57,809 nucleotides of DNA from an uncultured Candidatus Saccharibacteria bacterium. Lineage in GTDB: Bacteria > Patescibacteriota > Minisyncoccia > Minisyncoccales > CG1-02-41-26. The number at the start of each line of letters is the position of its first letter. Positions within the stretch are counted from its first letter, which is position 1. The notes under the pieces were generated by a model. It was not told where the DNA came from. It saw nothing but the letters and a program-made list of their open reading frames with translations, and did no database searches. The stretch covers positions 1-57,809 of the forward strand of contig CAYQUV010000001.1 in the NCBI GenBank assembly GCA_964421005.1, read 5' to 3'. Made by a program: the position numbers and the translations under genes. This document shows positions 35,025 to 57,555 of the stretch, piece by piece.

Positions 35025-35027
35025 AAC

Positions 35028-35119: not shown

Positions 35120-35198
35120 TTATGGTTATAATTTAACAATTTAAATTCTACCATCAAAAATTAGAAAAATCAATCAAAAAGAGAATTTATTCTCAGGC

Positions 35199-35227
35199 TT
35201 GACATTTTTCCTTTCCTGGATTATCTT
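35199..35227 (+). promoter_or_regulatory. Putative sigma-70 promoter (TTGACA, 17 nt spacer, TATCTT) for the 3D-domain gene
   Basis: ttgacatttttcctttcctggattatctt lies 17 nt upstream of ATG 35244. Confidence 0.4.
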
Positions 35228-35243
35228 AAGAGAATATTATTAA

Positions 35244-35759
35244 ATGTTAAAGCCCAACAATCTACACTTTCTGACTCTCTTGGTCTTAACGGTAACTCTT
35301 ATTTTTTCCCCGATTTTTCTGCTCAAAAAAGAAAAAGTAATGGCAGATGAGTTTTTTATTACAGATAAAATGAATGAGGGAGAATTCTCAACTTTCCCAA
35401 TTTACCAAGAAACAACCCTCCTCCCCTTAACATCCCCGATTCTCCGGGAAGATTCCGAAAAGATAAAAAGAATAAAAGTATTAGTCACTGCTTACTCTTC
35501 CTCTGTTTGGGAAACTCAGGGCGACCCTTTTATTACAGCTTCAGGAAACAAAGTAAGAGATGGAATTGTCGCAAATAATAAGTATCCTTTTGGGACAAAG
35601 GTTAGGTTCCCCGAGATCTACGGAGATAAAATTTTCATAGTCGAGGACAGAATGCACAGTAGAAAAGGGCCTTATCAATTTGATATTTGGATGGATTCCT
35701 ATGAGAAAGCGAAAAATTTCGGAGCAAAAATAGTCGAAGCTGAAATTTTTATTGATTAA
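35244..35759 (+). CDS. 3D-domain (MltA/RlpA-like double-psi beta-barrel) cell-wall-binding or lytic protein
   Basis: N-terminal TM. VTAYSS...ETQGDPFITASG..V.DGIVA......FGTKV.......IFIVEDRM......QFDIWM matches the 3D-domain pattern with conserved Asp residues. Confidence 0.8.
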   Translation: MLKPNNLHFLTLLVLTVTLIFSPIFLLKKEKVMADEFFITDKMNEGEFSTFPIYQETTLLPLTSPILREDSEKIKRIKVLVTAYSSSVWETQGDPFITASGNKVRDGIVANNKYPFGTKVRFPEIYGDKIFIVEDRMHSRKGPYQFDIWMDSYEKAKNFGAKIVEAEIFID

Positions 35760-35790
35760 AAAGTTCTCGCGAAATTTTCTCAATTAAAAA

Positions 35791-35816
35791 CCCACAGCCA
35801 AGCAGTGGGGTTTTTT
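35791..35816 (+). terminator. Terminator after the 3D-domain gene
   Basis: cccacagc-caa-gcagtggg followed by gttttttg. Confidence 0.6.
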
Positions 35817-35941
35817 GTTTCTAAGAGAAGAGCAAAAAAGAGCAGGGCGGATATTAAAAAATTGGTTTTGAAAACAATAGTTAAAATTGTTCGAACAATC
35901 TTTTGAAGATAGTGCACCAACGAAAAAACAATAATTGGTAG

Positions 35942-36025
35942 TGCCGCGGGTGGGACTCGAACCCACACGGGAAAATTCCCAACGGATTTTAAGTCCGTCT
36001 CGGTTACCAATTACGACACCGCGGC
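35942..36025 (-). tRNA. tRNA-Leu (anticodon UAA), no encoded CCA
   Basis: Acceptor gccgcgg/ccgcggc, anticodon arm acgga-cuUAAaa-tccgt, long variable arm, T-loop ttcgagt. Confidence 0.88.
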
Positions 36026-36033
36026 AAAATTTG

Positions 36034-36105
36034 AGGCCAGGGCGGGATTTGCACCCGCGTATATTGGTTTTGCAGACCAATGCCTTGCTGCTTGGCTACC
36101 TGGCC
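36034..36105 (-). tRNA. tRNA-Cys (anticodon GCA), no encoded CCA
   Basis: Acceptor ggccagg/cctggcc, anticodon arm ttggt-cuGCAaa-accaa. T arm gcggg-tgcaaat-cccgc, so the T-loop reads UGC rather than the usual UUC. Confidence 0.85.
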
Positions 36106-38379: not shown

Positions 38380-38470
38380 TGGCGGAGAGGGTGGGATTTG
38401 AACCCACGTGTCCTTACGGACCATCGGTTTTCGAAACCGCGCCGTTATGTCCAAACTTCGGTACCTCTCC
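38380..38470 (-). tRNA. tRNA-Ser (anticodon CGA), CCA encoded
   Basis: Acceptor ggagagg/cctctcc, anticodon loop uuCGAaa, long variable arm, T-loop ttcaaat. Confidence 0.88.
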
Positions 38471-40957: not shown

Positions 40958-41107
40958 TTTTTTCTCCTTTTTAATGTACCAAATCTAATTTTGTTAATTT
41001 TTAGTATCTCTTTCAGGGACAGGTCAATAGACAAAATCCTCTGAATTTTGCTCAAAGAAAGTTCTGACATCGTCCAGCAGACACCACATTTGACATGTTG
41101 CGAAATG

Positions 41108-41181
41108 TGGACCCAGTGGGAGTCGAACCCACGACCTCCCGCATGCCGAGCGGACGCTCTAGCCAGCTGAGCTATGGGCCC
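41108..41181 (-). tRNA. tRNA-Ala (anticodon GGC as read), no encoded CCA
   Basis: Acceptor gggccca/tgggtcc contains the G3:U70 Ala identity pair. Anticodon arm tccgc-ucGGCau-gcggg. Position 33 reads C rather than U. Confidence 0.75.
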
Positions 41182-41196
41182 TTAAAAATTAAAACT

Positions 41197-41272
41197 TGGA
41201 GCGGGAGACGGGATTCGAACCCGCGATCTTTTCGTTGGCAACGAAACGCTCTACCAGCTGAGCTACTCCCGC
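41197..41272 (-). tRNA. tRNA-Gly (anticodon GCC), CCA encoded
   Basis: Acceptor gcgggag/ctcccgc, anticodon arm tttcg-uuGCCaa-cgaaa, T-loop ttcgaat. Confidence 0.9.
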
Positions 41273-41291
41273 AAATTTTTTTCTTGTTTTG

Positions 41292-41364
41292 TGCCGCGGT
41301 CCGGAGTCGAACCGGAATCTCATGTTTTTCAGACATGCGCCGTGACCACCTTGGCTACCGCGGC
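41292..41364 (-). tRNA. tRNA-Phe (anticodon GAA), no encoded CCA
   Basis: Acceptor gccgcgg/ccgcggc, anticodon arm catgt-cuGAAaa-acatg, T arm tccgg-ttcgact-ccgga. Confidence 0.85.
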
Positions 41365-41368
41365 ATAG

Positions 41369-41442
41369 TGGGCGATGTAGGACTCGAACCTACGACCTCC
41401 TCGGTGTAAACGAGACGCTCTAGCCAGCTGAGCTAATCGCCC
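41369..41442 (-). tRNA. tRNA-Val (anticodon UAC), no encoded CCA
   Basis: Acceptor gggcgat/atcgccc, anticodon arm tctcg-uuUACac-cgagg, T arm gtagg-ttcgagt-cctac. Confidence 0.88.
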
Positions 41443-41455
41443 CAATTAAAATTTG

Positions 41456-41541
41456 TGCCCAGGGTGGGACTTGAACCCACACGCCCAAAAATTGAGCATA
41501 GCTCCTCAAGCTATCGCGTATACCGATTCCGCCACCTGGGC
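41456..41541 (-). tRNA. tRNA-Leu (anticodon GAG), no encoded CCA
   Basis: Acceptor gcccagg/cctgggc, anticodon arm atagc-uuGAGga-gctat, long variable arm, T arm gtggg-ttcaagt-cccac. Confidence 0.88.
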
Positions 41542-41555
41542 TTTTATTCTTATTA

Positions 41556-41954
41556 TTATTTCTTTTCCTTAAACTCTCTTGTTTTTAATTTTGCTTTCTT
41601 GCCCACTCTCTTTCTTAAGTAATAAAGTTTTGCCCTTCTTACTTTTCCTCTAGAAACTATTTCAATTTTTTCAACAGAAGGGGAATGTAAAGGAAAAATT
41701 CTCTCCACCCCGACGCCGTCAATAATTCTTCTGACGGTAATGGTTGAAGAAATTCCTTTGCCGTGTTTTTTGGCTAAAACCACTCCTTCAAAAATCTGGG
41801 TTCTTTCCCTTTCCTCTTCTTTTGACCCTTTACCCTTTTTAGGTTTGGTAATTTCTTTGATTTTCTGGTAAACCCGGACGGTATCACCCGGCCTGATGTC
41901 CGGCAAATCTTCTTTCAAATACGGTTTTAAAAATGTTTTAACTGCTTTTATCAT
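41556..41954 (-). CDS. rplS: 50S ribosomal protein L19 with basic insertion and tail
   Basis: [14 protein letters not shown]....[48 protein letters not shown] is the L19 signature. Confidence 0.92.
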
Positions 41955-42008
41955 ATGATAATTATCTTATCTCAATTCTTATTCAAAGTAAAGTTTAACT
42001 CAATTTTG

Positions 42009-42082
42009 TGTCCCTACCCCGATTTGAACGGGGAACCTTGACCTCCGCAGGGTCACGCTCTATCCAATTGAGCTATAGGGAC
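42009..42082 (-). tRNA. tRNA-Arg (anticodon GCG), no encoded CCA
   Basis: Acceptor gtcccta/tagggac, anticodon arm tgacc-cuGCGga-ggtca with G37, T arm ccccg-ttcaaat-cgggg. Confidence 0.85.
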
Positions 42083-45612: not shown

Positions 45613-46872
45613 TTATTCTGTCGGGTCAACTAACCTGCCAAAAAACAGGATATTCCCGGTCTCTTTTTCCTGGATTATAAATATAAAAGGATGGTCTGCT
45701 CTGAAAACATTTGCCGGTTCAATGGCGGTTAGTTTCATACCAACGGCAGTTGCCGCTGCTGCCTCTGTTCCTTCTTCATCAACCTTGACATAGGCTTGAT
45801 GAATAACAAAATCAATAAACAAATCTCTTTCCCCTGTCATTCCGGAAAAATCAGCATTTTGGGAAAAAGCGGTCGGCATTCCCAAGGCGCTCAAAGTTTT
45901 CTTCATGAAATATTTAGTATCAAACTCAAATTTAGGAATTGATATTAAATCCATCTTCGTTTTTTTCATCTGGGACTTGTACTCATCAAGTTTTTCTGCT
46001 GTGAGAGTTGATTCTATGACATCAAGATTTTCACTTGGCAGCAATATTAGCATTGAAATTTTGCCGCCTTTGTACGGCAGTTCCAAAATCCGTAAATCTC
46101 CTATATCAGCATAGTTAAACATCGCCTTATCCGGTCTCATATTCATCATTTGGGTTTTTACAATATTATCATGCGCTATCTTAAAATCTCCCTCCCGAGT
46201 ATCAGATTCATCAAATTGCCACTCCCAAATCCCTTTAAAATAAATGGCATTGGTCAAGACAAGTCTTGTTATAGAGTCCAGAAACCCGGCAGGAATCAAA
46301 TCTTTAATTTTATTGTTTGTCTGCTCCGCTATGAAACTGTTGATAGTCTCTCTTGATTTTTCGGTTTCTTTGACAAAATCCACATTTGCTGCCTTCCCAC
46401 CATAATATCTCTCAACCCTGTTCATATAATCCTCAAGAAAAGGATAATCGTATTGAACCCATAAAGCATTGCCTGTTTTCAATTCGTAATCTTCAGCGCC
46501 CTCATTGATATTATTATAAATTGCGGCAAAATTCGGCCTCAAAATATCGCTTTCCGGAAAATGAAAAACGGATTTCATTTCATCTGCTGTCTGCCCTTTT
46601 GCTCCTTCATAAGTCATTGCCAGGGCAGCAAAAATGCTGTACGGAGAATAAAAAATATTTCCATCTTCAGATTTATCCATTTCAGAGTAGAGGTCAAAAG
46701 CAAATTTGTTATTGGCATCGACTACATCCAGTATGCCCTGCTGAGTTGAGCCGGTATCATCTGCTTGAAGAGGCTGGTCCGGCTGATAAGGAAAAAGAAA
46801 CAGCACTGCCGCAGCAGATACACCCGCCAATAGAATAAATACCAACGCAACTAACAAAAATTTTTGAGTCAT
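45613..46872 (-). CDS. Secreted or membrane-anchored serpin-family protease inhibitor
   Basis: N-terminal signal/anchor (LLVALVFILLAGVSAAAV). Canonical inhibitory hinge EEGTEAAAATAV. C-terminal ADHPFIFIIQEKETGNILFFGRLVDP. Confidence 0.9.
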   Translation of the reverse strand: MTQKFLLVALVFILLAGVSAAAVLFLFPYQPDQPLQADDTGSTQQGILDVVDANNKFAFDLYSEMDKSEDGNIFYSPYSIFAALAMTYEGAKGQTADEMKSVFHFPESDILRPNFAAIYNNINEGAEDYELKTGNALWVQYDYPFLEDYMNRVERYYGGKAANVDFVKETEKSRETINSFIAEQTNNKIKDLIPAGFLDSITRLVLTNAIYFKGIWEWQFDESDTREGDFKIAHDNIVKTQMMNMRPDKAMFNYADIGDLRILELPYKGGKISMLILLPSENLDVIESTLTAEKLDEYKSQMKKTKMDLISIPKFEFDTKYFMKKTLSALGMPTAFSQNADFSGMTGERDLFIDFVIHQAYVKVDEEGTEAAAATAVGMKLTAIEPANVFRADHPFIFIIQEKETGNILFFGRLVDPTE

Positions 46873-47270: not shown

Positions 47271-47675
47271 ATGAAAATCTCAGCCAAAACTAGATACGGT
47301 TTGAGGGCAATGGTTTTTCTGGCTAAGAATTACAAAGAAAAAGAATTTTCCAGTTCAAAAGAAATTTCAAAAAAAGAAGGAATTCCCCGGGACTATCTTG
47401 AAAAAATAATGGAAAAATTAAAAGGAAAAAGATTGGTCAGAGCCAAAAAAGGGAAAGGAGGCGGCTATATCTTGGCCCGTTCCCCGGGAAAAATAAAAGT
47501 AAAAGAGATTGTGGAAATTTTAGAAAAAGACTCCAGGCTGGTTTTTTGTTTAGCCAAGAACAAAAAAATAATATGCCCGAGAGAAAAAGATTGTTTAAGT
47601 AAAAAGGTCTGGTTAAAAATTCAAAAAGCAATAAATACTGCCTTGGATTCAATTAGGTTAGAAGACTTAATTTAA
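47271..47675 (+). CDS. Rrf2-family transcriptional regulator (IscR-like)
   Basis: MKISAKTRYGLRAMVFLA wHTH. Cys residues C93, C102 and C108 (counted from the translation) in the region where IscR-type regulators ligate a cluster. Lies upstream of nifS/nifU. Confidence 0.88.
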   Translation: MKISAKTRYGLRAMVFLAKNYKEKEFSSSKEISKKEGIPRDYLEKIMEKLKGKRLVRAKKGKGGGYILARSPGKIKVKEIVEILEKDSRLVFCLAKNKKIICPREKDCLSKKVWLKIQKAINTALDSIRLEDLI

Positions 47676-47679
47676 AAAT

Positions 47680-48888
47680 ATGCCCGAGAATAAAAAAATA
47701 TATCTTGATTATGCGGCAACCACTCCTTTGGCAAAAGAGGTTCTAAAGGAAATGTTCCCTTTTTTGGAAAAGGATTTTGGCAACCCTTCTTCAATTCACA
47801 GTTTTGGCCAAAAAGCAAAAGAGGGAATAGATAAATCCAGAGAAAGAATTTCTAACTTTTTAAATTGCTCTCTCTCCGAAATTTTTTTTACCGGTTCGGC
47901 AACCGAAGCTAACAACCTGGCAATCTTCGGAGTTGTCAGGGCTGCTCAAAAAAGAGAAGAGAGACCTCACATTATTACAACTCAAATTGAACATCATGCC
48001 GTTTTAGAACCCTGTCGCCAATTGGAAAAAGAAGGAGTTGAGGTTACTTATCTGCCGGTTGACAAAGAGGGTTTAATTAAAATTTCTGAACTCAAAAAAG
48101 CAATCAAAGATAATACTCTTTTGGTTTCCATAATGTACGCAAACAACGAAATAGGAACAATTCAGCCAATTACTGAAATAGGAAACCTTATCAAGAAAAT
48201 AAACTCACGTTCCAAACCCCAGAGTTCAGCCATCGGGATTTATTTCCATACCGACGCTGTTCAGGCAATAAATTATCTGGACTGCGATGTCAAAAAATTA
48301 GGAGTCGATCTCTTAACCCTTTCCGCTCATAAGATTTACGGACCAAAAGGAGTTGGTGCTTTATATGTCAAAACAGGAACTCAAATTGTCCCTTTAATTT
48401 ATGGGGGAGGACACGAAAGAGGGTTGAGGTCAGGAACCGAAAACGTGGCTTCTATTGTAGGATTTGGCAAAGCAATTGAAGGAATTGAAAAATCAAAAAG
48501 TGGAATTGAAAGAATTAAAAAATTGAGAGATAAGCTAATTGATAACATTCTTAAAAACATTCCCGGGACAAAACTGATGGGAGCAAGGGATAAGCGTTTA
48601 CCAAACAATGTCAACGTTTCTATTTCCGGAGCTGAAGGAGAAAGTATGGTAATCGCCCTGGATAAAGAAGGTATTGCTGCTTCAACCGGTTCAGCTTGTT
48701 CTTCTCAAAGCCTGGAACCATCCCATGTTCTTCGAGCCCTGGGTCTATCTTCTGCGGAAGCTCATTGTTCTTTAAGATTATCTCTCGGCAAATATACCAA
48801 AGAAGAAGAAGTTGATAAAGTTTCGGAAATTTTGCCAAAAATCGTCAAAAGATTGAGAAAAATTTCAGGGTACAAAACAGAGTTATGA
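47680..48888 (+). CDS. nifS: Cysteine desulfurase (NifS/IscS class I)
   Basis: PLP lysine context SAHKIYGPKGVGALYV. Active-site loop ASTGSACSS. 402 aa. Confidence 0.95.
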   Translation: MPENKKIYLDYAATTPLAKEVLKEMFPFLEKDFGNPSSIHSFGQKAKEGIDKSRERISNFLNCSLSEIFFTGSATEANNLAIFGVVRAAQKREERPHIITTQIEHHAVLEPCRQLEKEGVEVTYLPVDKEGLIKISELKKAIKDNTLLVSIMYANNEIGTIQPITEIGNLIKKINSRSKPQSSAIGIYFHTDAVQAINYLDCDVKKLGVDLLTLSAHKIYGPKGVGALYVKTGTQIVPLIYGGGHERGLRSGTENVASIVGFGKAIEGIEKSKSGIERIKKLRDKLIDNILKNIPGTKLMGARDKRLPNNVNVSISGAEGESMVIALDKEGIAASTGSACSSQSLEPSHVLRALGLSSAEAHCSLRLSLGKYTKEEEVDKVSEILPKIVKRLRKISGYKTEL

Positions 48889-49274
48889 AAGATTACTATT
48901 CAAAAAAAATAATCGACCGCTTTTTAAACCCAAAAAATCTGGGAAAAATAAAAAATCCTGACGGCATAGGAGATACCGAAAATTTGAGATGCGGAGATAT
49001 AATGAAAATCTATATTAAGGTCAGCAAAAAGAAAGAAGAATACATCAAAGAAATAAAATTTGAAACAATGGGATGCCCTGTTGCAATAGCCAGTTCTGAT
49101 ATAATTTGTAGTTTAGCCAAAGGAAAAACATTGGACGAAGCCAGAAAAATCAGTTTTAAAAATATTGCCGATAAATTGGGGCCTTTGCCTCCTCAAAAAA
49201 TGCATTGCACCAACCTGGCCGAAAGGGCTTTAAGAATGGCAATAAAAGATTATGAAGATAAAAAGAAAAAATAA
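48885..49274 (+). CDS. nifU: Fe-S cluster scaffold protein (NifU N-terminal / IscU type)
   Basis: Three ligand Cys in LRCGDIM, GCPVAIASS and MHCTNLA. Start overlaps the nifS stop (ATGA). Confidence 0.93.
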   Translation: MKDYYSKKIIDRFLNPKNLGKIKNPDGIGDTENLRCGDIMKIYIKVSKKKEEYIKEIKFETMGCPVAIASSDIICSLAKGKTLDEARKISFKNIADKLGPLPPQKMHCTNLAERALRMAIKDYEDKKKK

Positions 49275-50325
49275 AAAAGTTGTAATGGCAATGTCCGGAG
49301 GAATTGATTCTTCGGTAGGGGCAGCCCTCTTAAAGAAAGAGGGGTTTGATGTAAGAGGTATTTTTATGGAACTTTGGCAAGACCCTTCAAAATTCTCAAA
49401 AAAAAGAGCGGAGAAAGCGGCTAAACTTCTGGAAATTCCTTTTCAAGTACTCGATTTAAAAAAAGAATTCAAAAGAAAAGTTATCGGCTATTTTCTAAAA
49501 GAGTATAAAAGCGGCAGAACTCCAAATCCCTGTGTCGTCTGTAACAAGGAAATTAAATTTAGTTTCCTTTTAAAAAAGGCTCGAGAACTCGGGGCAGATT
49601 TCATCGCTACTGGTCATTACGCCGTAAAACAGGAGAAAAAAAGAAACAAAAAAGAAAAAACAGAATATAAATTGTTAAAAGGCAGAGACAAAGAAAAGGA
49701 CCAATCATATTTTCTCTGGCAACTAAATCAAAAAACTCTCAAAAAAGTTTTATTTCCTCTTGGAACTTTAAAAAAGAAAAAGGTTAAAAATTTGGCAAAG
49801 AAGTTCGGCTTGCCGGTCAAAAATATCGGAGAGTCCCAGGAAATCTGTTTTGTCAAAACATCAATTAATGATTTTCTCAAACAATATATCGGAGCGAGAC
49901 CAGGAAACATCGTAGACGAAAAAGGCAATCTAATCGGCAAACATCGGGGGCTCCATTTTTATACAATCGGTCAAAGAAAGGGACTTGGGATTTCAGGTGG
50001 CCCCTGGTATGTTTTAAGCAAAGATTTGAAAAAAAATATTCTGATTGTCACCAAAAATGAAGAAAATCTGAAAAAAAAGAAACTAATTGTAGAAAATGTT
50101 AACTGGATTTCAGGAAGAGCACCGAAATTGCCTTTGAAAATTAAAACTAAAATAAGATATAAGTCTCCTTTGAGAGAAGCCGAGATGAAAAAGAAAAAAG
50201 GAGAGAAATTTTTTAAGGTGGTTTTTTCAAAGAAACAGAAATCTATTACTCCCGGTCAGTCAATAGTTTTTTACAAAGACGAAGAAGTTTTAGGAGGAGG
50301 AATAATAAGAAAAACAGAAGATTGA
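49252..50325 (+). CDS. mnmA: tRNA 2-thiouridine(34) synthase MnmA
   Basis: PP-loop AMSGGIDSS. Catalytic Cys context NPCVVCNK and ESQEICF. Contains a Lys-rich insertion. Confidence 0.93.
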   Translation: MKIKRKNKKVVMAMSGGIDSSVGAALLKKEGFDVRGIFMELWQDPSKFSKKRAEKAAKLLEIPFQVLDLKKEFKRKVIGYFLKEYKSGRTPNPCVVCNKEIKFSFLLKKARELGADFIATGHYAVKQEKKRNKKEKTEYKLLKGRDKEKDQSYFLWQLNQKTLKKVLFPLGTLKKKKVKNLAKKFGLPVKNIGESQEICFVKTSINDFLKQYIGARPGNIVDEKGNLIGKHRGLHFYTIGQRKGLGISGGPWYVLSKDLKKNILIVTKNEENLKKKKLIVENVNWISGRAPKLPLKIKTKIRYKSPLREAEMKKKKGEKFFKVVFSKKQKSITPGQSIVFYKDEEVLGGGIIRKTED

Positions 50326-50411
50326 CAGAGGCGAAATCTCAGAGGTATACTCAAAATATGAGTTCTCTAAAGGTCAAATTATCTTGCTAAAATTAAAATA
50401 AATTATTATTT

Positions 50412-50693
50412 ATGTCACCATTAAGAAATGGAACGGGCCCCGGGGGGCAAGATCCGGGGATAGGCAGAGGCGCTGGCAGAGGAGCAGGACAGGGCAGAGG
50501 AGCCGGCCAAGGTAGAAGAGCCGGACAGGGTCGAGGTTTAAACCGTCAGCCGGGCGGTTTCGGTTTAGGCCCCGGGGATTTCTGTATTTGTACCAATCCC
50601 GATTGCCAGCATAAAGTTCCTCATCAAAGAGGAGTCCCCTGTTACACCCTGAAATGCCCGAAGTGCGGGAGTCCAATGATAAGAGAAAGATAA
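50412..50693 (+). CDS. DUF5320-like small protein: Gly/Arg-rich N-terminus plus a C-terminal 4-Cys knuckle
   Basis: RNGTGPGGQDPGIGRGAGRGAGQGRGAGQGRRAGQGRG resembles the GTGP..G.G..TGRG start of DUF5320-type proteins (from memory). C-terminus CICTNPDC...CPKCG. Confidence 0.55.
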   Translation: MSPLRNGTGPGGQDPGIGRGAGRGAGQGRGAGQGRRAGQGRGLNRQPGGFGLGPGDFCICTNPDCQHKVPHQRGVPCYTLKCPKCGSPMIRER

Positions 50694-50742
50694 ACTTTAC
50701 AAAATAATACTTTTCAATTTCAGTATTATTTTCCATTTCTCT

Positions 50743-51237
50743 ATGCGTATTTGTATTACATCAATTGGCCCAGATTTAGATTCTCAAGTAGACCCTCGTT
50801 TCGGCAGAGCCCAATATTTTTTGATTCTTGATGAAAAAGGGAAATTAAAAGAAGCCCTAAGAAATCCAGGAATCAGAGCTATGAGAGGAGCCGGAATATC
50901 GGCTGCTCAAGAAATTTCAAATAAAGGAATAAATATCCTAATCACCGGAAACATCGGGCCAAATGCTATCGGGGTACTAATGACAACCGGAATAAAGGTC
51001 TTTTTGGCAAATTCGGCAAACTCTGCCAAAGAAGCTTTCAAAATGTGGAAGGCCAATAAATTGTCTGAAATTAAATCTCCCTCGATCGGAGGCCATTTTG
51101 GCATAGGAGCCGGCGGCAGTGGCAGAGGGGCCAGGGGTGGCAGAGGTCCCGGTAGTGGCAGAGGTCCCGGTAGTGGCAGAGGTCCCGGTAGTGGCAGAGG
51201 AGCCGGAGGTAGCAGCGGCAGAAATCTCGGAAGATAA
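50743..51237 (+). CDS. NifX/NifB-C-terminal-like (dinitrogenase Fe-Mo cofactor family fold) protein with a Gly/Arg-repeat tail
   Basis: MRICITS...VDPRFGRAQYFLILD......GAGISAAQEISNKGINILITGNIGPNA...L...GIKVF is the H/R-F-G-R-A..F.I.D hallmark of the Nitro_FeMo-Co domain. Tail: GRGARGGRGPGSGRGPGSGRGPGSGRGAGG. Confidence 0.75.
   Translation: MRICITSIGPDLDSQVDPRFGRAQYFLILDEKGKLKEALRNPGIRAMRGAGISAAQEISNKGINILITGNIGPNAIGVLMTTGIKVFLANSANSAKEAFKMWKANKLSEIKSPSIGGHFGIGAGGSGRGARGGRGPGSGRGPGSGRGPGSGRGAGGSSGRNLGR
51139..51200 (+). repeat. Perfect 18-bp tandem repeat (ggcagaggtcccggtagt, 3 full copies plus a partial one) encoding GRGPGS repeats
   Basis: Read directly: units at 51139-51156, 51157-51174 and 51175-51192, with a partial fourth copy. 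Confidence 0.9.
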
Positions 51238-52475
51238 TGTCAGATATATTTAAACAAGGACAAAAAACAAGTTTGCTCGCAGCTTCAATAACAGTTTCTT
51301 TAGCAGCAGCTAAAGGAATAGTCGGTTTTATTTCGGGCAGCGTGGTTTTAATGGGTGATGCCGTACATAGTTTCGCTGATTCTTTTTCAAGTTTTGCTGC
51401 CTGGTTGGGGCTGAAAATTGCTAAAAAAGAACCTACTCAAAAATTTCCTTACGGTTTTTATAAAGCAGAAAGTATAACTGCTTTTTTGATTTCTCTGTTA
51501 ATCTTCTTTGCCGGATATACTATTGTTAAAGAAAGTATTGGCAAGCTATTTTTGAAATACCAATTAAATATTCCTTTGGTAGCAATAGGAGTAGCTTTGC
51601 TGGATGCGGTTGTGATGTTCGGTATGGGAACTTACGAAATAAAAATAGGAAGAAGCATAAATTCCCAAAGTCTAATCGCAGACGGCAAAGAATCAAGAAT
51701 GCACATTTTCTCTTCTCTTATTGTTTTAGTGGGTCTTGTTTCGACCCTGCTTGATATTTCTTATCTGGAAGGAATTGCTGGAATTTTAATATCACTTTTT
51801 ATTTTTGAGGCGGGCTTTGAATCAGCAAGAGACTCAATATTTTCTCTAATGGATGTATCCCCGGATCCTTTGATAGAGAAAAAAATAAAAGATATATTAA
51901 GTAAAATCTCCGGACTTCGCGGATTTGAAAATTTAAAGTTAAGAAAATCAGGGCCTTTTGTTTTTGGAGAAGTTGAAGGGAAAATAGGAAAAGCTCTCAG
52001 TGTAAAAAGAGCCAGTGAAATTTCAGAAAGTATTGAAAAAGAAATAAAAAACAAAGTTAAAACAGTAGATTCTTTCACGGTTTCTCTTCGGCCTTTTGAA
52101 ACAAAGAAACAGAAAATTTGCATTCCGATAGAAAAAGACAAAGGATTGGAGTCGGAAATCTCATTACATTTTGGAAGAGCCCCTTTATTTATTTTTTTAG
52201 AATTAGAACAAGGGATAGTAAAGCGATTTTACATTAAAGAAAACCCTTTTAAAAAAGAGAAAATAAGAGCAGGGCTCAAAGCATGCGATTTCGTTATCAA
52301 GGAAAAAATTGATTCCATAATCACTAAAGAAATGGGACCTATTTCCCTCCATACTCTAAGAGATAATATTGTAGATGTTTATCAGGGAGTTGACAAAACA
52401 GTAAACGAAGCTATCAAGAATTTTTCTCAAAAAAAATTAAATCTTCTTAAAACTCCGACGAGAGTAAAAACATAA
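51237..52475 (+). CDS. Cation diffusion facilitator (CDF) transporter fused to a C-terminal NifX-like domain
   Basis: CDF core (AAKGIVGFISGSVVLMGDAVHSFADSFSS... six TM helices, and a cytoplasmic domain ending around residue 288). A second Nitro_FeMo-Co-like module follows (KICIPIEKD....ISLHFGRAPLFIFLE...) from about nt 52101. Start overlaps the upstream stop (TAATG). Confidence 0.8.
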   Translation: MSDIFKQGQKTSLLAASITVSLAAAKGIVGFISGSVVLMGDAVHSFADSFSSFAAWLGLKIAKKEPTQKFPYGFYKAESITAFLISLLIFFAGYTIVKESIGKLFLKYQLNIPLVAIGVALLDAVVMFGMGTYEIKIGRSINSQSLIADGKESRMHIFSSLIVLVGLVSTLLDISYLEGIAGILISLFIFEAGFESARDSIFSLMDVSPDPLIEKKIKDILSKISGLRGFENLKLRKSGPFVFGEVEGKIGKALSVKRASEISESIEKEIKNKVKTVDSFTVSLRPFETKKQKICIPIEKDKGLESEISLHFGRAPLFIFLELEQGIVKRFYIKENPFKKEKIRAGLKACDFVIKEKIDSIITKEMGPISLHTLRDNIVDVYQGVDKTVNEAIKNFSQKKLNLLKTPTRVKT

Positions 52476-53384
52476 ATGAGAAAACTCTTAAAGAAAATTG
52501 CTATAACCGGAGGCAAGGGCGGCACCGGTAAATCAACGGTAGCTGTTCTGCTGGCAAGTAAATTATCAAAGGAGGGCAAAAAGGTAATTCTCTGCGATTG
52601 TGATGTTGAGTGCCCTAATGACTACTTGTTAACCGGGCAAAAATTAAAAAAACCAGCAAGCCGAGTTTATGCTGAGTTTCCAAAATTAATTAAAGAAAAA
52701 TGCAAAAAGTGCGGCCTATGCGCCAAAACTTGCCGAAACAATGCTATCTTTCAGGCGCCGGGGGAATATCCAATTTTCATAAAAGATTTATGCTCTGGCT
52801 GCGGAGCTTGCTGGACAGTTTGTCCTTTCGGAGCAATCCGTCCCTACAAAGAGGAAATTGGAAAAATCTATCAAAACAAAGTAAATATTCCCCAAAGCAA
52901 CCGGCATTCATCAGAAAGTAAACAGAAATCAAAAGCAAAAGATAAAAATCAAAATTCAAAAAACTTCTATCTAGTAACGGGAGTAGCAAAAGCAGGATTA
53001 GAGGAAACGGGCCAGGTGGTCAGAGAGAGCAAAAAATTCGCTCTGGATTTAGCTAAAAAAATCAGGGCTGACGTTGTTCTTTTTGATACGGCAGCCGGTA
53101 CTCACTGCCCGGTGATCAATGCTTTATTAGATGTTAACGAGGCTCTTGCCGTAACCGAACCAACTCCAATGGGTGCTCTGGATTTAAATTTAATTCTGAG
53201 TTTGTGTAAAAAACTAAAAATTCCCAGTAAAATAATTGTAAACCAAGCAGATTTAGGAAATAGAAAAAAAATTGAAAATATTGCCAAAAAATTCAAAATA
53301 AAAATCAAAAAAGAGATTCTTTATTCAAAAAATTTAGTTGAAGCTTATTCTAAAGGTCAACTTTTAACTCAAGCATTAAACTGA
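52476..53384 (+). CDS. MinD/ParA/Mrp-superfamily P-loop ATPase with an inserted 2x[4Fe-4S] ferredoxin domain
   Basis: Deviant Walker A GGKGGTGKST. CKKCGLCAKTCRNNAI and CSGCGACWTVCPFGAI inserted after the P-loop. Walker B VLFDTAAG. Confidence 0.85.
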   Translation: MRKLLKKIAITGGKGGTGKSTVAVLLASKLSKEGKKVILCDCDVECPNDYLLTGQKLKKPASRVYAEFPKLIKEKCKKCGLCAKTCRNNAIFQAPGEYPIFIKDLCSGCGACWTVCPFGAIRPYKEEIGKIYQNKVNIPQSNRHSSESKQKSKAKDKNQNSKNFYLVTGVAKAGLEETGQVVRESKKFALDLAKKIRADVVLFDTAAGTHCPVINALLDVNEALAVTEPTPMGALDLNLILSLCKKLKIPSKIIVNQADLGNRKKIENIAKKFKIKIKKEILYSKNLVEAYSKGQLLTQALN

Positions 53385-53899
53385 TGGCTATAATTAAACC
53401 TTTAAAAAAAGAAGAAGTTGCTGAAATAGCAAAAGAAATATATCAGGATTTTGAAAACCAGGGGAAAAAAGTTCCGGAATGGGTTAAGGTTATGGCTCAC
53501 CGGCCAGAAATCCTAAAAGAATTTTTTGAATTGTTTAAAACGATAATGGCAGAAGGAAAAATAGAAAAATTATTAAAATGGAAAATTGCTTATACTGTTT
53601 CCCAAACATTAAAATGTCCATTCTGCGTTGATGTAACCAGCAAGATGTTAAAAAAATTCGGAGCAAAAGAAGAAGAAATAAAAAATGCTGAAAAGTTGGA
53701 AAACTTGTCTGAGAAAGAAAAAGAGATACTACAATTGGTAAAAGAAATAACCCAAAAAGCCCATGTTTGCAGCCCGGAGTTGTTTGAAAAAATGAAAAAA
53801 GATTTCACCGAACCCGAAATGGTAGAAATTGTCTCAATTATCGGTTTGTTCAATTATATCAACAGATTCAACAATACATTCTGTATCCTCCCCGAATAA
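53384..53899 (+). CDS. AhpD-like / carboxymuconolactone decarboxylase-family protein with a CxxC motif
   Basis: All-helical, 171 aa, with LKCPFCVDVTSKML (CxxC in the position typical of AhpD-like peroxidase folds). Start overlaps the upstream stop (TGATG). Confidence 0.6.
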   Translation: MAIIKPLKKEEVAEIAKEIYQDFENQGKKVPEWVKVMAHRPEILKEFFELFKTIMAEGKIEKLLKWKIAYTVSQTLKCPFCVDVTSKMLKKFGAKEEEIKNAEKLENLSEKEKEILQLVKEITQKAHVCSPELFEKMKKDFTEPEMVEIVSIIGLFNYINRFNNTFCILPE

Positions 53900-53923
53900 A
53901 ATATATTTTTAATTTATTAATTT

Positions 53924-55387
53924 ATGAGAAAAATAGTTTTTTTTACGGTTATATTCCTTACTCTAATATCAACTGCTTCTAATTTTGCTTCTGCTTCTGA
54001 AGTTCCCCAAACCGACTTCACTTGTGCTGTCTACTTTACAGGAGTCGGCTGCCCGCATTGTGCTAAGACCGACCCCCTTATTTTTGAAGATTTGCTCCCA
54101 GAATATCCAAATCTCGTTGTTATTGAGTACGAGATTTACCAACAGAAAGAAAATGCCCTCTTGTTAAATGAATATTGCAAAGTATACGAACTTCCTTATT
54201 GCAGACCGGGGATTCCATCGCCCTGCTGCGGTCTCCCTTTAATTTTTCTTGGCAAATCTCATCAAGAGATTATCTCCGGAGACAGCCCAATTTTAAATAA
54301 TGTCAGGGAAACAATTAAAGAAGTTGAAAATAAATGTCCTTTAATTGACGGGGGGTTGATTGATTTCAAGGAGCTAAACCTTGTCGCTTTACCAGGTTTT
54401 CCTAAAATCTGGACCGAAAATAAGATTTTAATGAAAAAAGGGCCAGGGGGAAACAGTGATTTACTAAAAAACTTATTGACAACTAAAAATTTACCCCAAG
54501 TTTTACGAAGAACAGAATTCAGAAAAATAGAGCCGATAAAAGTTGCTCTCTCCGGGAAATATGTGGAGTTTGAAAACGCTATAGAAATCAAGGGGTGGAT
54601 TTTCCAATGGAACGGCAGAGAATTTGAAATTTCTGGCTATCCCTCAAAAGAAGAACCTCTCTTAGAGAAAGAAACTACTTCAAAAAATAATTTACCCTTC
54701 CAGGAAATCGGAACAAGTCTCACTCTAGCTCAGATTTCATCCTTGGCTGCAGTAGATGCGATCAATCCTTGTGCTTTAGCAGTTTTGAGTTTAATGTTGA
54801 TTGCCATTTTGGCTTATAATCCAGAAAAGAAGAAAAACCTTCTCCTGGCCGGGAGTGCTTTTATTATTTCGGTTTTCGTAATGTATCTTGTTTATGGATT
54901 GATAATTGTCAAATCTTTCCAACTCATTCAGGCATTAACTTCAGTTAGGGTTTATCTTTATAAAATTCTTGGTGGAGTAGCTATAATCCTTGGTTGTTTC
55001 AAGTTAAGAGATTTCTTCAGAGCCGGAGGAGTTTGTAAAGTTTCACCGAGGGTAAATAAAATTATCTCCAAAGTAACCAGTACCAAAGGAGCTTTTTTGG
55101 TAGGCGCTTTTGTTGCCATATTTTTGCTTCCCTGTACCATCGGACCTTATATTATCTGCGGGGGAATTCTTTCCGGTCTCTGTCTATCAAAATCTTTACC
55201 GCTTCTGTTGCTTTATAATTTAATATTTGTCCTGCCAATGGTTATATTGGTTTGGATAATTTACCTTGGCCTCAGTAAAGTTGAAGATATTTCCAAGTGG
55301 CAGGCAAAAAATATAAAATATTTAGACCTGGCTTCCGGATTAGTTATTTTAGGATTAGGAATAGCTATGATTTCAGGGTTAGTTTAG
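53924..55387 (+). CDS. Fusion of an extracytoplasmic thioredoxin-like domain (CPHC) with a CcdA/DsbD-type thiol:disulfide electron-transfer membrane domain
   Basis: Signal peptide. YFTGVGCPHCAK. Six C-terminal TM helices with the two DsbD-family Cys contexts AINPCALAVL and LLPCTIGPY. Confidence 0.75.
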   Translation: MRKIVFFTVIFLTLISTASNFASASEVPQTDFTCAVYFTGVGCPHCAKTDPLIFEDLLPEYPNLVVIEYEIYQQKENALLLNEYCKVYELPYCRPGIPSPCCGLPLIFLGKSHQEIISGDSPILNNVRETIKEVENKCPLIDGGLIDFKELNLVALPGFPKIWTENKILMKKGPGGNSDLLKNLLTTKNLPQVLRRTEFRKIEPIKVALSGKYVEFENAIEIKGWIFQWNGREFEISGYPSKEEPLLEKETTSKNNLPFQEIGTSLTLAQISSLAAVDAINPCALAVLSLMLIAILAYNPEKKKNLLLAGSAFIISVFVMYLVYGLIIVKSFQLIQALTSVRVYLYKILGGVAIILGCFKLRDFFRAGGVCKVSPRVNKIISKVTSTKGAFLVGAFVAIFLLPCTIGPYIICGGILSGLCLSKSLPLLLLYNLIFVLPMVILVWIIYLGLSKVEDISKWQAKNIKYLDLASGLVILGLGIAMISGLV

Positions 55388-55413
55388 AATATCAATAAAC
55401 TAATTTAAAAGTT

Positions 55414-55734
55414 ATGTACAAAATAAATAAACAAAAATGTACGGGTCGCGGAGTTTGCATGGCTAATTGTCCCGGCGCAACTGAACTCGAAGCAGAGGGA
55501 AAAGCCAAGGTAATTGATCAAGATAAACTGGAAAAATGCGGAGGAGAAAATCTCTGTCCGTTTGGGGCAATAGAAAAAATCCCAGAAGAAGTAAAACGAA
55601 AACAACAAACACCTTTAACATCTCCACTTTATAGCTCTCCCTCATCATCTTTTCTTAAGGAAAGAGAGTCTGGCAAGAGTAGAGGCTTCGGACGGTCAAG
55701 AGGAATAAAGAAAAAGCGAAGAAGAAGAGATTAG
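55414..55734 (+). CDS. Small ferredoxin-like protein with an Arg/Lys-rich C-terminal tail
   Basis: KCTGRGVCMANCPG ... CGGENLCPFGAI, followed by GKSRGFGRSRGIKKKRRRRD. Confidence 0.6.
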   Translation: MYKINKQKCTGRGVCMANCPGATELEAEGKAKVIDQDKLEKCGGENLCPFGAIEKIPEEVKRKQQTPLTSPLYSSPSSSFLKERESGKSRGFGRSRGIKKKRRRRD

Positions 55735-55945
55735 CATTAAAAGATTGAACAATTCTTCTGGCTAAGATGAAAAACTCATAATTTAAATTATTCTACTTGC
55801 GGAGGTCAAAATTTACTCAAAAAAATCTACTCAAAAAGCTGTAATTGAACTCAGCCTGATGGATGTCTATGATTTGGATTTAATTTTGGACCCATATCAA
55901 GCCCAAAAGGAAATGCTTAATATAATGTTGAATTAACTTAAAATT

Positions 55946-57205
55946 ATGCCTAAACAAAATTTTTTCTCGGTAACCCAAAGACAATTTAGAAAAATTGCCA
56001 ACATTTTAAATATAGAACCTAAGACTATCCGGGAGTTAGAAGAACCGCAGAGGTTTGTTAAATTTCAAATTCCAGTTCGGATGGATAATGGAAAAAAAGA
56101 AATTTTCTTTGGATTTAGGTCACAACATAACAATGCTCTTGGGCCTTACAAAGGTGGGATTAGGTTTCATCCTGATCTCTCAGAAAATAGAATCAAAGCT
56201 TTATCTATTTTAATGACTTGGAAGTGTGCTTTGGCGAATTTACCTTTTGGTGGTGCTAAGGGAGGGATAATTGTTGAGCCTCGAAAATTAAGTAAAGGAG
56301 AATTAGAAAGACTTTCTCGAGGATATGTTAAAGGAATTTTTCCCTGGCTCGGGCCGGATGTAGATATCCCAGCTCCAGACATTAACACTAATCCTCAAAT
56401 TATGGCTTGGATGACAGATGAATATTCTAAACTTAAAGGTGAAAATCTCCCTGCTGCCTTTACTGGCAAGCCTCTCAAGTTTTGGGGTTTAAAGGGCAGA
56501 AAAGAAGCCACTGGCTATGGAGGAATAGTAATTCTTAAAAAACTACAACAAACATTTGGCTTCAAACCAGAAGAAACAACTTTAGCTATTCAGGGTTTTG
56601 GAAATGTCGGCTCTAATTTTGCTCATTTTGCTTTTCAGGAGGGGTACAAAATCATAGCTCTTTCTGAAGAAAAAGGAGGAATTTATGTGCCCGGAGGCCT
56701 TAATCCTGAACAAACTCTTCGATGTCGAGAAGAGAAAGGTAAAATTGCTGGATGTTATTGTACAGGTTCAGTTTGCGACGTAAATCTTGGAAAACAAATT
56801 ACCAATAAGCAACTTTTAGAGACGGAAGTTGATGTTTTAATTCCCGCAGCGGTGGAAGATGTGATTACCAAAGAGAATGCTCAAAAAATTAAGGCTAAAT
56901 ACATAATTGAGATGGCAAACAGTCCAGTCACTTCAGAAGCAGATATAGTTTTACAAGACAAGGGAATAATATCAGTACCAGATATTCTAGCTAATAGCGG
57001 TGGGGTAATTGCTTCTTATTTTGAATGGTTACAGTCAAAAGAAAAAAAGAAATGGAAGAAAGAGAAAGTACAAAACCAATTATCGGCAATTCTAGAAAGA
57101 GTATTCGATGATGTCTGGAGATTGTCAAAAAAAGAAAATATAAACTTAAGGAATGCAGCCTATTTTCTGGCTATAGATAGGGTGGTCAAGGCATTGAAGA
57201 GGTAA
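55946..57205 (+). CDS. gdhA: Glutamate dehydrogenase (Glu/Leu/Phe/Val dehydrogenase family)
   Basis: KGGIRFHP, catalytic Lys context PFGGAKGG, Rossmann motif QGFGNVG. Confidence 0.93.
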   Translation: MPKQNFFSVTQRQFRKIANILNIEPKTIRELEEPQRFVKFQIPVRMDNGKKEIFFGFRSQHNNALGPYKGGIRFHPDLSENRIKALSILMTWKCALANLPFGGAKGGIIVEPRKLSKGELERLSRGYVKGIFPWLGPDVDIPAPDINTNPQIMAWMTDEYSKLKGENLPAAFTGKPLKFWGLKGRKEATGYGGIVILKKLQQTFGFKPEETTLAIQGFGNVGSNFAHFAFQEGYKIIALSEEKGGIYVPGGLNPEQTLRCREEKGKIAGCYCTGSVCDVNLGKQITNKQLLETEVDVLIPAAVEDVITKENAQKIKAKYIIEMANSPVTSEADIVLQDKGIISVPDILANSGGVIASYFEWLQSKEKKKWKKEKVQNQLSAILERVFDDVWRLSKKENINLRNAAYFLAIDRVVKALKR

Positions 57206-57234
57206 TCAATAGTATTATAATTATAATAAATATC

Positions 57235-57555
57235 ATGTCAGAAATAATTTTAACTGATCAAAATTTTGAAGAGGAGGTTATAAAAAGTGACCAGCCTGTT
57301 TTGGTTGATTTTTGGAGTCCAACCTGTCCTCCTTGTTTAGTGCTGGGACCAATCATTGAAGAAATTGCTAGAGAATTTGAAGGCAAGGCGAAAGTTGGAA
57401 AATTGAATGTCTTTGAGAATCCAGAGATTGCCAGAAAGTACCAAATCGTCGGTATCCCAACTATTATCATTTTCAAGAATGGAGAAGTAAAAGAAAGGGC
57501 ATCTGGCTTACGGCCCAAACAGGTAATAGCAGATAGACTTAATTCACTCCTTTAA
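57235..57555 (+). CDS. trxA: Thioredoxin
   Basis: 106 aa. VLVDFWSPTCPPC active site (CPPC rather than CGPC). GIPTIIIFKNGE. Confidence 0.92.
   Translation: MSEIILTDQNFEEEVIKSDQPVLVDFWSPTCPPCLVLGPIIEEIAREFEGKAKVGKLNVFENPEIARKYQIVGIPTIIIFKNGEVKERASGLRPKQVIADRLNSLL

Follow-up and report, generated by a model that had tools for sequence, protein, structure and literature searches.

A compact Patescibacteria gene cluster around an IssA-type protein and a CDF::NifX transporter, with a possible role in iron-sulfur buffering

Judged by gene content and gene order, seven co-directional genes of an uncultured Candidatus Saccharibacteria bacterium (assembly GCA_964421005.1, contig CAYQUV010000001.1, positions 1 to 57,809; this whole stretch of 57,809 nucleotides is the window referred to below) are a compact Patescibacteria version of a cluster conserved both in the candidate phyla radiation (CPR) and in DPANN archaea. 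The genes, called g1 to g7 here, encode a small Gly/Arg-rich protein with a Cys6-His module, a protein of the IssA type, a cation diffusion facilitator (CDF) transporter that carries a second NifX-like domain, a MinD-type ATPase with an inserted ferredoxin domain, and three thiol-redox or ferredoxin proteins. The reading that we prefer, and which we regard as quite possible but short of probable, is that this operon could be a cytoplasmic buffering system for iron and sulfide equipped with an efflux valve.

Clusters of NifX-like proteins, MinD-ferredoxin ATPases, DUF134 and DUF5320 proteins are widespread in anaerobes and bear on the question of how these organisms store and detoxify iron and sulfide. 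The component families are already known, and the NifX and MinD-ferredoxin neighbourhood has been studied as the orange protein (ORP) system. In the literature that we searched, including that on NifX in CPR and DPANN and on DUF134/COG1149, nothing describes the present cluster, and neither the fusion of a CDF transporter to a NifX-like domain, its obligatory presence as a partner, tails of the IssA type in such a setting, the family of Cys6-His modules with its fusions, the frequent thioredoxin-like::CcdA-like partner nor the distribution over CPR and DPANN has been described. Some 50 syntenic relatives now tie an IssA-type protein to three fixed partners (an efflux transporter, an iron-sulfur ATPase and the Cys6-His module family), so that a loosely drawn neighbourhood becomes a list of parts whose pairwise relations can be predicted and tested. 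CPR and DPANN organisms, whose genomes are very small, have kept the cluster, and it is common to both domains, which suggests that it matters for life in sulfidic, iron-rich habitats.

Seven genes with tight junctions

A preliminary description of this DNA had placed seven plus-strand genes at 50412-55734, with three overlapping or abutting junctions, and had treated them as one operon. All coordinates and junctions were confirmed (Table 1), and the common strand and tight spacing support an operon-like unit. The stop and start codons of g2 and g3 overlap in TAATG (51235-51239, gap of -1 nt), those of g3 and g4 abut (TAA and ATG, 52473-52478, gap of 0 nt) and those of g4 and g5 share one base in TGATG (53382-53386, gap of -1 nt), while the remaining spacers measure 49 nt (g1-g2), 24 nt (g5-g6) and 26 nt (g6-g7). 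On the outside, mnmA lies 86 nt upstream of g1, and a glutamate dehydrogenase gene follows 211 nt downstream of g7. The domains proposed in the preliminary description stood for g2, g3, g4, g5 and g7, all of which passed Pfam thresholds; g6 was placed by family, motif and fold, and the assignment of g1 did not hold, as set out below.

Table 1. Genes of the cluster and associated features, in coordinates of the window
Feature	Position	Strand	Assignment	Basis or remark
g1	50412..50693	+	93 residues; Gly/Arg-rich N-terminal half and C-terminal Cys6-His module	
g2	50743..51237	+	164 residues; NifX-fold domain (IPR003731/PF02579) and 52-residue Gly/Arg tail	
g3	51237..52475	+	CDF cation-efflux transporter with C-terminal NifX-like domain	Pfam, NCBIfam
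g4	52476..53384	+	MinD/ParA-type P-loop ATPase with inserted 2x[4Fe-4S] ferredoxin domain	Pfam
g5	53384..53899	+	AhpD/CMD-family protein with CxxC (KCPFC)	PF02627, 4.5e-10
g6	53924..55387	+	Predicted membrane thiol-reductant conduit, thioredoxin-like::CcdA-like	Family, motif, fold
g7	55414..55734	+	Small single-cluster-type ferredoxin, 5 Cys, with 46-residue Lys/Arg-rich tail (isoelectric point 11.9)	Fer4_15, 1.4e-5
Promoter-like site	50322..50351	+	TTGACA-18-TATACT	In the 86-nt mnmA-g1 gap; 11 of 12 consensus positions match
Context genes	47271..50325	+	Rrf2 regulator, class-V cysteine desulfurase, IscU-type scaffold (NifU_N), MnmA	Pfam; outside the conserved unit

A conserved four-gene core

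Conservation of the neighbourhood was followed from two seeds. A metagenome scan seeded with the CDF::NifX transporter gave 80 loci, and the 26 of these with ample flanks were counted; a scan of species-representative genomes seeded with g6 found 337 relatives, of which 80 loci were kept. At the 26 well-flanked loci g2 and g4 were always present and g1 was found at 21; DUF5320 and DUF134 genes were each found at 18 of the 26. g6-type genes (>100 bits) occurred at about 12 of the 26, g7 and thioredoxin (Trx) genes at 13 each, and mnmA at four. Weak tblastn matches labelled Mrp_L033 and low-score matches labelled MinDFer4b or NifX2 are cross-matches to P-loop proteins or paralogs and were not counted as genes. 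An unbiased clustering of the neighbouring open reading frames (ORFs) at 46 loci of at least 9 kb recovered the same core and the same ranking, and added an MBL-fold protein, UDG, an ABC-3 metal transporter, a SufBD-core protein, FeoB and fusions of Trx to ferredoxin:thioredoxin reductase (FTR).

The 80 g6 loci belong to Patescibacteria and to DPANN (Aenigmatarchaeota, Woesearchaeota, Pacearchaeota, Nanoarchaeota, Iainarchaeia and Micrarchaeota), with 45-67% identity, and about one third of them also carry homologs of g1 to g4 on the same strand. Their recurring order, seen in CPR and DPANN, is g1-g2-g3-(NifX)-g4(-g4')-g6, where g4' is a second ATPase paralog. Dozens of unrelated genomes repeat the core order, which puts the arrangement far outside chance. 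The order g4-g5-g6 is found in the close relatives L012 and L074, and two further loci show co-occurrence only (g4 to g7 in L016; g5, g6 and g7 in L006).

From these neighbourhoods, g1 to g4 are the conserved core, g6 and g7 frequent partners and g5 a lineage-restricted accessory. The expectation that gene order would recur is thus borne out for g1-g2-g3-g4 in both Patescibacteria and DPANN. The earlier idea that all seven genes make up a self-contained machine does not survive, as g6 and g7 occur at about half of the loci and g5 at about 15%. The window holds a minimal cluster: relatives have in addition a DUF134 regulator, a true DUF5320 gene, another NifX-like gene and another ATPase paralog.

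g2 has the features of an IssA-type protein

By its domain, its composition and its nearest solved structures, g2 can be classed as a probable IssA-type protein. The globular part matches PF02579 (Nitro_FeMo-Co; E=4e-18, residues 13-103), and the tail of 52 residues holds 24 Gly, 8 Arg and no acidic residue, giving an isoelectric point (pI) of 12. The operational definition of IssA is a pI of at least 9, fewer than five Cys and a Gly share of 20% or more over the final 40 residues (PMC5524996, Supplementary Fig. 7); g2 falls inside all three limits, with a pI of 11.3, one Cys and 48% Gly. A protein inside these limits is present at 28 of 43 syntenic loci, and the orthologs retain Gly/Arg(/Phe/Met) tails with a pI of about 10, several of them with Phe/Met/Trp-Gly-Arg repeats. 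The closest solved relative of g2 is MTH1175 (6e-21), followed by the orange protein of D. gigas (2WFB, 2.6e-16) and by TM1290. NifB-like entries match at about 0.01 ('probable NifB', E=0.015), and NafY was unmatched. This proximity to MTH1175 and the orange protein, rather than to carriers of the NifB or NafY type, supports the iron-sulfur reading.

In Pyrococcus furiosus, IssA (PF2025) holds iron and sulfur in store in the form of thioferrate and rebuilds [4Fe-4S] ferredoxin only when a reductant is present (PMC5524996). NifX-fold proteins with cationic Gly-rich tails are regarded as IssA-type thioferrate stores, and MTH1175, itself an IssA-type protein, was the template used to model IssA (PMC5524996). 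A Pyrococcus mutant deleted for IssA grows poorly at high iron and sulfide (PMC8219758), and in M. voltae the IssA homologs, together with FeoB and DtxR, respond to the iron and sulfur source (PMC8516115). IssX, the name given to uncharacterised mesophilic relatives of IssA (PMC5524996), is also among the closest known proteins to g2. IssA and g2 share the IPR003731/PF02579 domain, the disordered cationic Gly-rich tail, the high pI and the low number of Cys. They differ in that the g2 tail is a pure Gly/Arg(/Ser/Pro) repeat, nearly devoid of aromatics and without a proline-rich linker; in that g2 shares a fixed operon with the CDF::NifX transporter, the Cys6-His protein and the MinD-ferredoxin ATPase, a setting undescribed for IssA; and in that g2, known here from its sequence, belongs to a mesophilic-type ultra-small bacterium.

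The tail is coded by an 18-nt tandem repeat (4.8 copies, 51114-51215) whose copy number differs between strains. In one strain variant (L004, 836-1312) one GSGRGP unit is missing, giving a protein of 158 instead of 164 residues, and the length of the g2 tail therefore varies within the population.

The CDF transporter g3 and its fused NifX-like domain

g3 joins a Cation_efflux domain (PF01545, 5e-43) and a ZT_dimer domain (PF16916, 3e-11) to a C-terminal Nitro_FeMo-Co domain (1e-13), and its membership of the CDF family is clear from TIGR01297 (195 bits against a cutoff of 82). This architecture of membrane, dimerisation and NifX-like domains was found in all 120 of the top homolog clusters among the matches listed. 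By homology to YiiP the NifX-like domain, which has no conserved cysteine, would be cytoplasmic. The profile searches thus uphold the NifX-like assignments for both g2 and g3, as they do the MinD-ferredoxin assignment for g4 (CbiA/ParA with two Fer4).

With respect to its substrate, g3 scores below every equivalog cutoff of the substrate-defined subfamilies compared (MamB, MamM, MntE, FieF, ZitB and DmeF). Its best partial scores are those for MamB (135 bits, against a cutoff of 350), MntE (123), MamM (123) and FieF (97), and since these are iron/manganese-type models, this ranking supports the proposal that iron is the metal concerned. Aligned to Shewanella YiiP, the transport-site quartet of g3 reads H44-D48/E152-H156 as against D-D/H-D (window positions 51366-51380 and 51690-51704). 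The HD-EH quartet, present in 123 of 139 sequences, does not vary within the close CDF::NifX family; cluster-associated CDFs at a greater distance show HD-HD, ED-DD or HD-ED, and the archaeal ones ED-DD, HD-ED or DD-ED. In comparison with FieF/YiiP, MntE and MamB/MamM, g3 has the same six-helix Cation_efflux and cytoplasmic ZT_dimer domains, but differs in the H-D/E-H site and in the extra cytoplasmic NifX-like domain.

Characterised CDF transporters export cations from the cytoplasm. The preliminary description had proposed a machine for acquiring a metal and for assembling, storing or trafficking a metallocluster; acquisition is unlikely, given this direction of transport, and the storing or trafficking of metal-sulfur species fits.

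g1 carries a Cys6-His module that is fused to other cluster proteins

The N-terminal half of g1 (22 Gly and 8 Arg in 55 residues, pI 12) is coded by another 18-nt tandem repeat (3.1 copies, 50475-50530), and an AlphaFold2 model predicts it to be disordered (predicted local distance difference test, pLDDT, below 55), while the C-terminal module is modelled at a pLDDT of 86-93. This module has the pattern CxC-x4-C-x5-H-x5-C-x4-CxxC, and an alignment of 34 homologs leaves C58, C60, C65, H71, C77, C82 and C85 invariant. In place of the DUF5320-like protein with four Cys that had been proposed, we therefore find six invariant Cys and one His. In Pfam, g1 gives sub-threshold matches to zinc ribbons and to DUF5320 only, its C-terminal part belonging to no Pfam family, and a fold search with the module returned generic zinc ribbons, none of them significant.

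Membership of DUF5320 (PF17253) was rejected. The match reaches 13.2 bits against a cutoff of 27 (E=0.21) and covers profile positions 2-60, that is, the N-terminal half; besides, true DUF5320 proteins (78 bits) are encoded by separate genes beside the g1 orthologs. These genes lie directly upstream of the g1 orthologs (L042, 6337-6729; L007, 3669-3941; L115, 4066-4434), and their products consist of a Trp/Phe/Gly/Arg-rich segment and a coiled coil. This segment looks like the IssA tail as described in print, so that DUF5320 might represent a 'tail' made as a protein of its own.

An exhaustive profile search showed that the module family comprises 2,112 representative clusters. Among the best 150 of these, the module is fused to NifX-like domains in 19, PDZ in 16, DUF134 in seven, ferredoxin in four and trypsin-like protease in three, with single cases of rhodanese, DUF5320 and magnetochrome. 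At DPANN loci it sits behind the helix-turn-helix domain of DUF134 (PF02001, 1e-27), and in three loci (L034, L035 and L037) the CDF transporter ends in this module, in the place taken in g3 by the NifX-like domain. We take these Rosetta-stone fusions as an argument that the g1 module functions physically together with NifX-fold domains, and that each of the two may serve both as a transporter's cytoplasmic add-on and as a regulator's sensor. Some very long relatives (P0333, P0334, P0341, P0353 and P0476; 600-1,500 residues) hold two to five copies of the module together with PDZ, NifX-like, rhodanese or magnetochrome domains, and one long module-bearing protein comes from a Planctomycetota metagenome-assembled genome. 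For these long proteins, as for the seven of the operon, almost no source names exist.

A possible iron-sulfur buffer with an efflux valve

On the reading that we prefer, the NifX-fold domain of g2 would nucleate an anionic, thioferrate-like iron-sulfur polymer or cluster whose charge is neutralised by the Gly/Arg tail. g1 would supply a second cationic segment, with its Cys6-His module docking on NifX-fold domains. The g7 ferredoxin may feed electrons to g4 and its two [4Fe-4S] clusters, and g4 could use ATP and these low-potential electrons to load the store or to mobilise it reductively. Surplus Fe(II), or a similar cation, would be vented from the cytoplasm by g3, the fused NifX-like domain coupling efflux to the state of the store. 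The AhpD-like g5 and the membrane protein g6 would act as thiol-redox accessories, g6 carrying reducing power to the cell surface. In addition to the relatives of g2, its agreement with the published limits for IssA, the literature on IssA and the scores of g3, all given above, this scheme is supported by a neighbourhood enriched in metal and iron-sulfur genes (ABC-3 transporter, SufBD-core protein, FeoB and MnmA), by the conservation of the core from both seeds and by the fusion of the g1 module to NifX-like, CDF and DUF134 proteins.

Several observations weigh against it. The tail of g2 does not show the Trp/aromatic-Gly-Arg repeat of IssA, having one aromatic residue in 52. The HD-EH site of g3 is unlike that of any characterised CDF compared. 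About two thirds of the 80 g6 loci lack the core, and g5 is rare, being found at four of the 26 well-flanked CDF::NifX loci and at five of the 80 g6 loci. Linkage to iscRSU is not conserved: the preliminary description had pointed to a nifS-nifU system immediately upstream, and a cysteine desulfurase gene and an IscU gene are indeed there, but IscS was found at none of the 26 well-flanked loci, so that the adjacency is, on this comparison, peculiar to this lineage. In the ORP system a Mo-Cu-S cluster is the ligand of the orange protein, and a [3Fe-4S] cluster that of the NifX-type domain in MrpORP (PMC6345978); with the orange protein as its second-closest solved relative, the species bound by g2 is one that we infer. 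Finally, the role of the ORP complex and of its Orp3/4-type ATPases was still called unclear in 2021 (PMC8359166). To that extent the earlier statement that these genes have no assigned function stands, but it overlooks that IssA stores (PMC5524996) and the ORP complex (PMC6345978) are known.

The thiol-redox genes and the possibility of a composite operon

g5 matches the peroxidase-related model TIGR01926 at 7e-17, below the cutoff of that model. g6 itself has no match in Pfam or NCBIfam, the DsbD families included; its full-length homologs number more than 1000, many of them named 'CcdA / thiol-disulfide isomerase' and carrying PF11139 (SfLAP), which we take to belong to the LysE/DsbD clan. 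Its predicted layout is an N-terminal anchor helix, an extracytoplasmic thioredoxin-like domain (GCPHC), a beta-rich middle part and a six-helix CcdA-like domain (NPC and LPC motifs). Across 24 sequences C43 and C46 (GCPHC), C283 (NPC) and C404 (LLPCTIGP) are invariant, the last two lying in membrane helices. The AlphaFold2 model (pLDDT 76.6) has as its top Foldseek match the nuclear magnetic resonance structure of CcdA, 5VKV (probability 0.99, target-normalised TM-score 0.51, E=0.048). An identification of the membrane domain as CcdA from its profile was rejected as too weak (E=3.5 against 5VKV). With the fold included, thioredoxin-like::CcdA-like appears to be the best description of g6.

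Like CcdA, DsbD and ScsB-ScsC, g6 combines two membrane Pro-Cys motifs with an extracytoplasmic thioredoxin-fold CxxC domain, but it does so in one polypeptide with thioredoxin-like, beta-rich and membrane domains, and its relatives are in PF11139 and not in the DsbD families. The family is mainly limited to CPR and DPANN, groups that mostly lack c-type cytochromes. It is common to Patescibacteria and many DPANN lineages at 45-55% identity over the full length (L006-L085), with the core cluster showing the same dual distribution, which implies that the g6 family was probably transferred between these two groups of ultra-small organisms. Fusions of Trx to the FTR catalytic domain (PF02943, 6e-23), found in or beside the cluster in L007 (8203-8796) and in the metagenome loci L093, L098, L103, L107 and L110, suggest that electrons pass from ferredoxin by way of thioredoxin to the CcdA-like protein.

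These genes bring in the first alternative, in which the g1-g4 core and the g5-g7 thiol-redox genes are independent modules that are merely co-transcribed in this lineage. The many g6 loci without the core would be accounted for in this way, as would the presence of g6, g7 and g5 at only about 12, 13 and four of the 26 core loci. A strain variant (L002, 7791-10163, compared with window positions 55414-57555) also fits: its g7 has 44 residues, the glutamate dehydrogenase and Trx genes are missing, the acetyl-CoA synthetase gene comes directly after the shortened g7 and the other genes are intact. Independence is harder to square with the one-base overlap of g4 and g5, the gaps of 24-26 nt from g5 to g7, and the position of g6-type genes as seventh most recurrent neighbour of CDF::NifX (21 of 46 loci), far above a random neighbourhood. 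Moreover, g6-type genes keep their strand and their downstream position in CPR and DPANN, and Trx and Trx::FTR fusions recur too. We consider a composite operon unlikely; in part it is compatible with iron-sulfur buffering.

g4 and the comparison with the ORP complex

g4 matches CbiA (9e-18), ParA (6e-14) and two Fer4 domains. Among 73 homologs, which form two paralog groups, the Walker A motif GGKGGTGKS, the eight ferredoxin Cys and C211 are conserved, C46 being conserved in addition in the g4-type paralog. C211 stands seven residues past the switch-II aspartate, a spacing that presumably matches that of a NifH cluster ligand, and such a likeness would suggest ATP-gated electron transfer. A Lys/Ser/Asn-rich low-complexity insertion of about 30 residues (approximately residues 134-163; 52875-52964) separates the ferredoxin insert from the remaining ATPase in g4 and is missing from the orthologs of L012 (280 residues) and L007 (273 residues).

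Among the closest known systems is the ORP complex of D. vulgaris and D. gigas (Orp3, Orp4, Orp5, Orp8 and MrpORP; PMC6345978, PMC8359166), in which MinD-ferredoxin ATPases occur with NifX-like proteins, among them, in D. vulgaris, the NifX-fold orange protein and the Mrp::NifX fusion MrpORP (PMC6345978). A second alternative is that the cluster encodes an ORP-type metalloprotein complex without a storage role, acting in a redox-dependent manner in cell division, morphology or redox signalling, with the CDF and redox genes serving its maturation only. The domain make-up of g4 is that described for Orp3 and Orp4 (PMC6345978; compared by description), and g2 matches the orange protein 2WFB (3e-16). 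Both systems thus pair a single-domain NifX-fold protein (Orp8/ORP) with a MinD-type ATPase bearing two [4Fe-4S] motifs, and both are specific to anaerobes. Relatives of the cluster typically hold two MinD-Fer4 paralogs per locus, which recalls Orp3 with Orp4, and sometimes Mrp/NBP35, a true member of which lies inside an archaeal version (L033). Inactivation of OrpR leads to morphological defects in D. vulgaris (PMC8359166).

Set against this, the window has one ATPase paralog and no MrpORP (at most 49 bits against a cutoff of 450 for any of the seven proteins). The ORP genes form two divergent operons under the control of sigma-54 and OrpR, whereas the window has a single co-directional operon with no gene for a sigma-54 activator (enhancer-binding protein) adjacent to it; sigma-54 promoters were not searched for. 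The CDF::NifX transporter, the IssA-type tails, the Cys6-His module and the Trx::CcdA-like protein are additions of the present cluster, the cationic tails and the obligatory CDF partner being foreign to the ORP system as described, and the role of that system in cell division is itself a hypothesis only (PMC8359166). On balance a non-storage complex of the ORP type seems unlikely to us.

Metals other than iron, and nitrogenase

A third alternative is that the cluster detoxifies or traffics Zn, Cd, Cu, Mo or W. Here the CDF would export the metal, the NifX-fold proteins would keep a thiometallate bound (Mo/W-Cu-S, for example), and copper would be kept away from surface thiols by the external, ScsC-like domain of g6. 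Most characterised CDFs export Zn, Cd or Co, distant cluster-associated CDFs have the zinc-type HD-HD site, and ABC-3 transporter genes, which are of the Zn/Mn type, recur nearby. The N-terminal domain of g6 weakly matches ScsC/DsbA-like proteins (8e-4), among them ScsC 'copper resistance' proteins, and a Mo-Cu-S cluster is bound by the orange protein (PMC6345978). The transporter itself argues otherwise, as g3 scores far lower for ZitB (54 bits) and DmeF (27 bits) than for MamB, MntE, MamM and FieF (97-135 bits). g2 lies within the published limits for IssA, and the recurrent neighbours are SufBD, FeoB and MnmA rather than copper or molybdate genes. As far as is known, CPR and DPANN genomes encode few Mo/W enzymes. 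We give this alternative little credence.

That g2 and the g3 domain are carriers of the NifX/NafY/NifB type for the cofactor of a nitrogenase or alternative nitrogenase, as the Pfam name Nitro_FeMo-Co and the upstream NifS/NifU-type pair could suggest, is extremely improbable: in agreement with the preliminary description, no nitrogenase component was found among the ten largest other ORFs of the window, nifH, nifD, nifK, nifE, nifN and nifB were not found among its larger ORFs, the recurrent neighbours at 46 related loci or the 160 related loci covered by clustering, g2 stands far nearer to MTH1175 and ORP than to 'probable NifB' or to the unmatched NafY, and the upstream set is a generic Rrf2-IscS-IscU-MnmA group.

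A wider conjecture about iron-sulfide nanoparticles

The buffering scheme can be extended into a wider claim, which we regard as quite improbable. CPR and DPANN would hold a dedicated system, powered by ATP and ferredoxin, for making and dissolving thioferrate-like iron-sulfide nanoparticles inside the cell. Its parts would be IssA-type proteins, the free-standing cationic partners g1 and DUF5320, the Cys6-His module and a CDF valve under the control of a NifX-type sensor. The MamB/M-like CDF and the modules linked to PDZ, magnetochrome and NifX would then share ancestry with machinery for iron biomineralisation such as that of magnetosomes. A point of comparison is FmpB (DMR_41100) of D. magneticus, a magnetosome protein with PDZ, magnetochrome and NifX/NifB domains (PMC4287615). 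The likeness is one of domain sets only: long proteins bearing the g1 module unite PDZ with NifX-like domains and, in a single instance, with magnetochrome. CDF transporters are partners in both systems; the window differs in having no PDZ, magnetochrome or other magnetosome genes. If true, this would give a function to the long-enigmatic ORP, COG1149, DUF134 and DUF5320 clusters of anaerobes.

Surroundings of the operon

The promoter-like site upstream of g1, a candidate by its match to consensus, is among the two best sigma-70-like matches within the surrounding 11 kb. Its -10 element is overlapped by the perfect palindrome ACTCAAAATATGAGT (arms ACTCA and TGAGT around AAATA; 50349-50363), which was rejected as an operator: the palindrome is unique in the window, but it is within chance when one mismatch is allowed and is unconserved in five orthologous upstream regions. 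No known RNA elements, riboswitches included, were found in the gaps flanking the cluster, and a scan for terminators gave sites no more numerous than in shuffled sequences, none of them convincing at the operon ends.

The same locus is present on several JGI and ENA metagenome contigs. On the longest of these the downstream region encodes an ADP-forming acetyl-CoA synthetase, an MBL-fold protein, a DtxR-like/FeoA protein and FeoB, so that in this genome the operon has iscRSU upstream and DtxR-FeoA/FeoB about 5 kb downstream. The remainder of the window is made up of ordinary bacterial housekeeping genes (RNase Y, FtsK, FtsW, NAD-ligase, type IV pilus genes, IF-2 and tRNAs).

On the minus strand, a short way upstream of the isc genes, lies a full-length serpin gene (45613-46872; PF00079, 2e-118) whose product has an N-terminal hydrophobic segment, an uncommon gene in a bacterium with a reduced genome. 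Further upstream, eleven tRNA genes on the minus strand form three groups (34935-36105, 38380-38470 and 41107-42082), one of which consists of five closely spaced genes (Ala, Gly, Phe, Val and Leu) within 450 bases.

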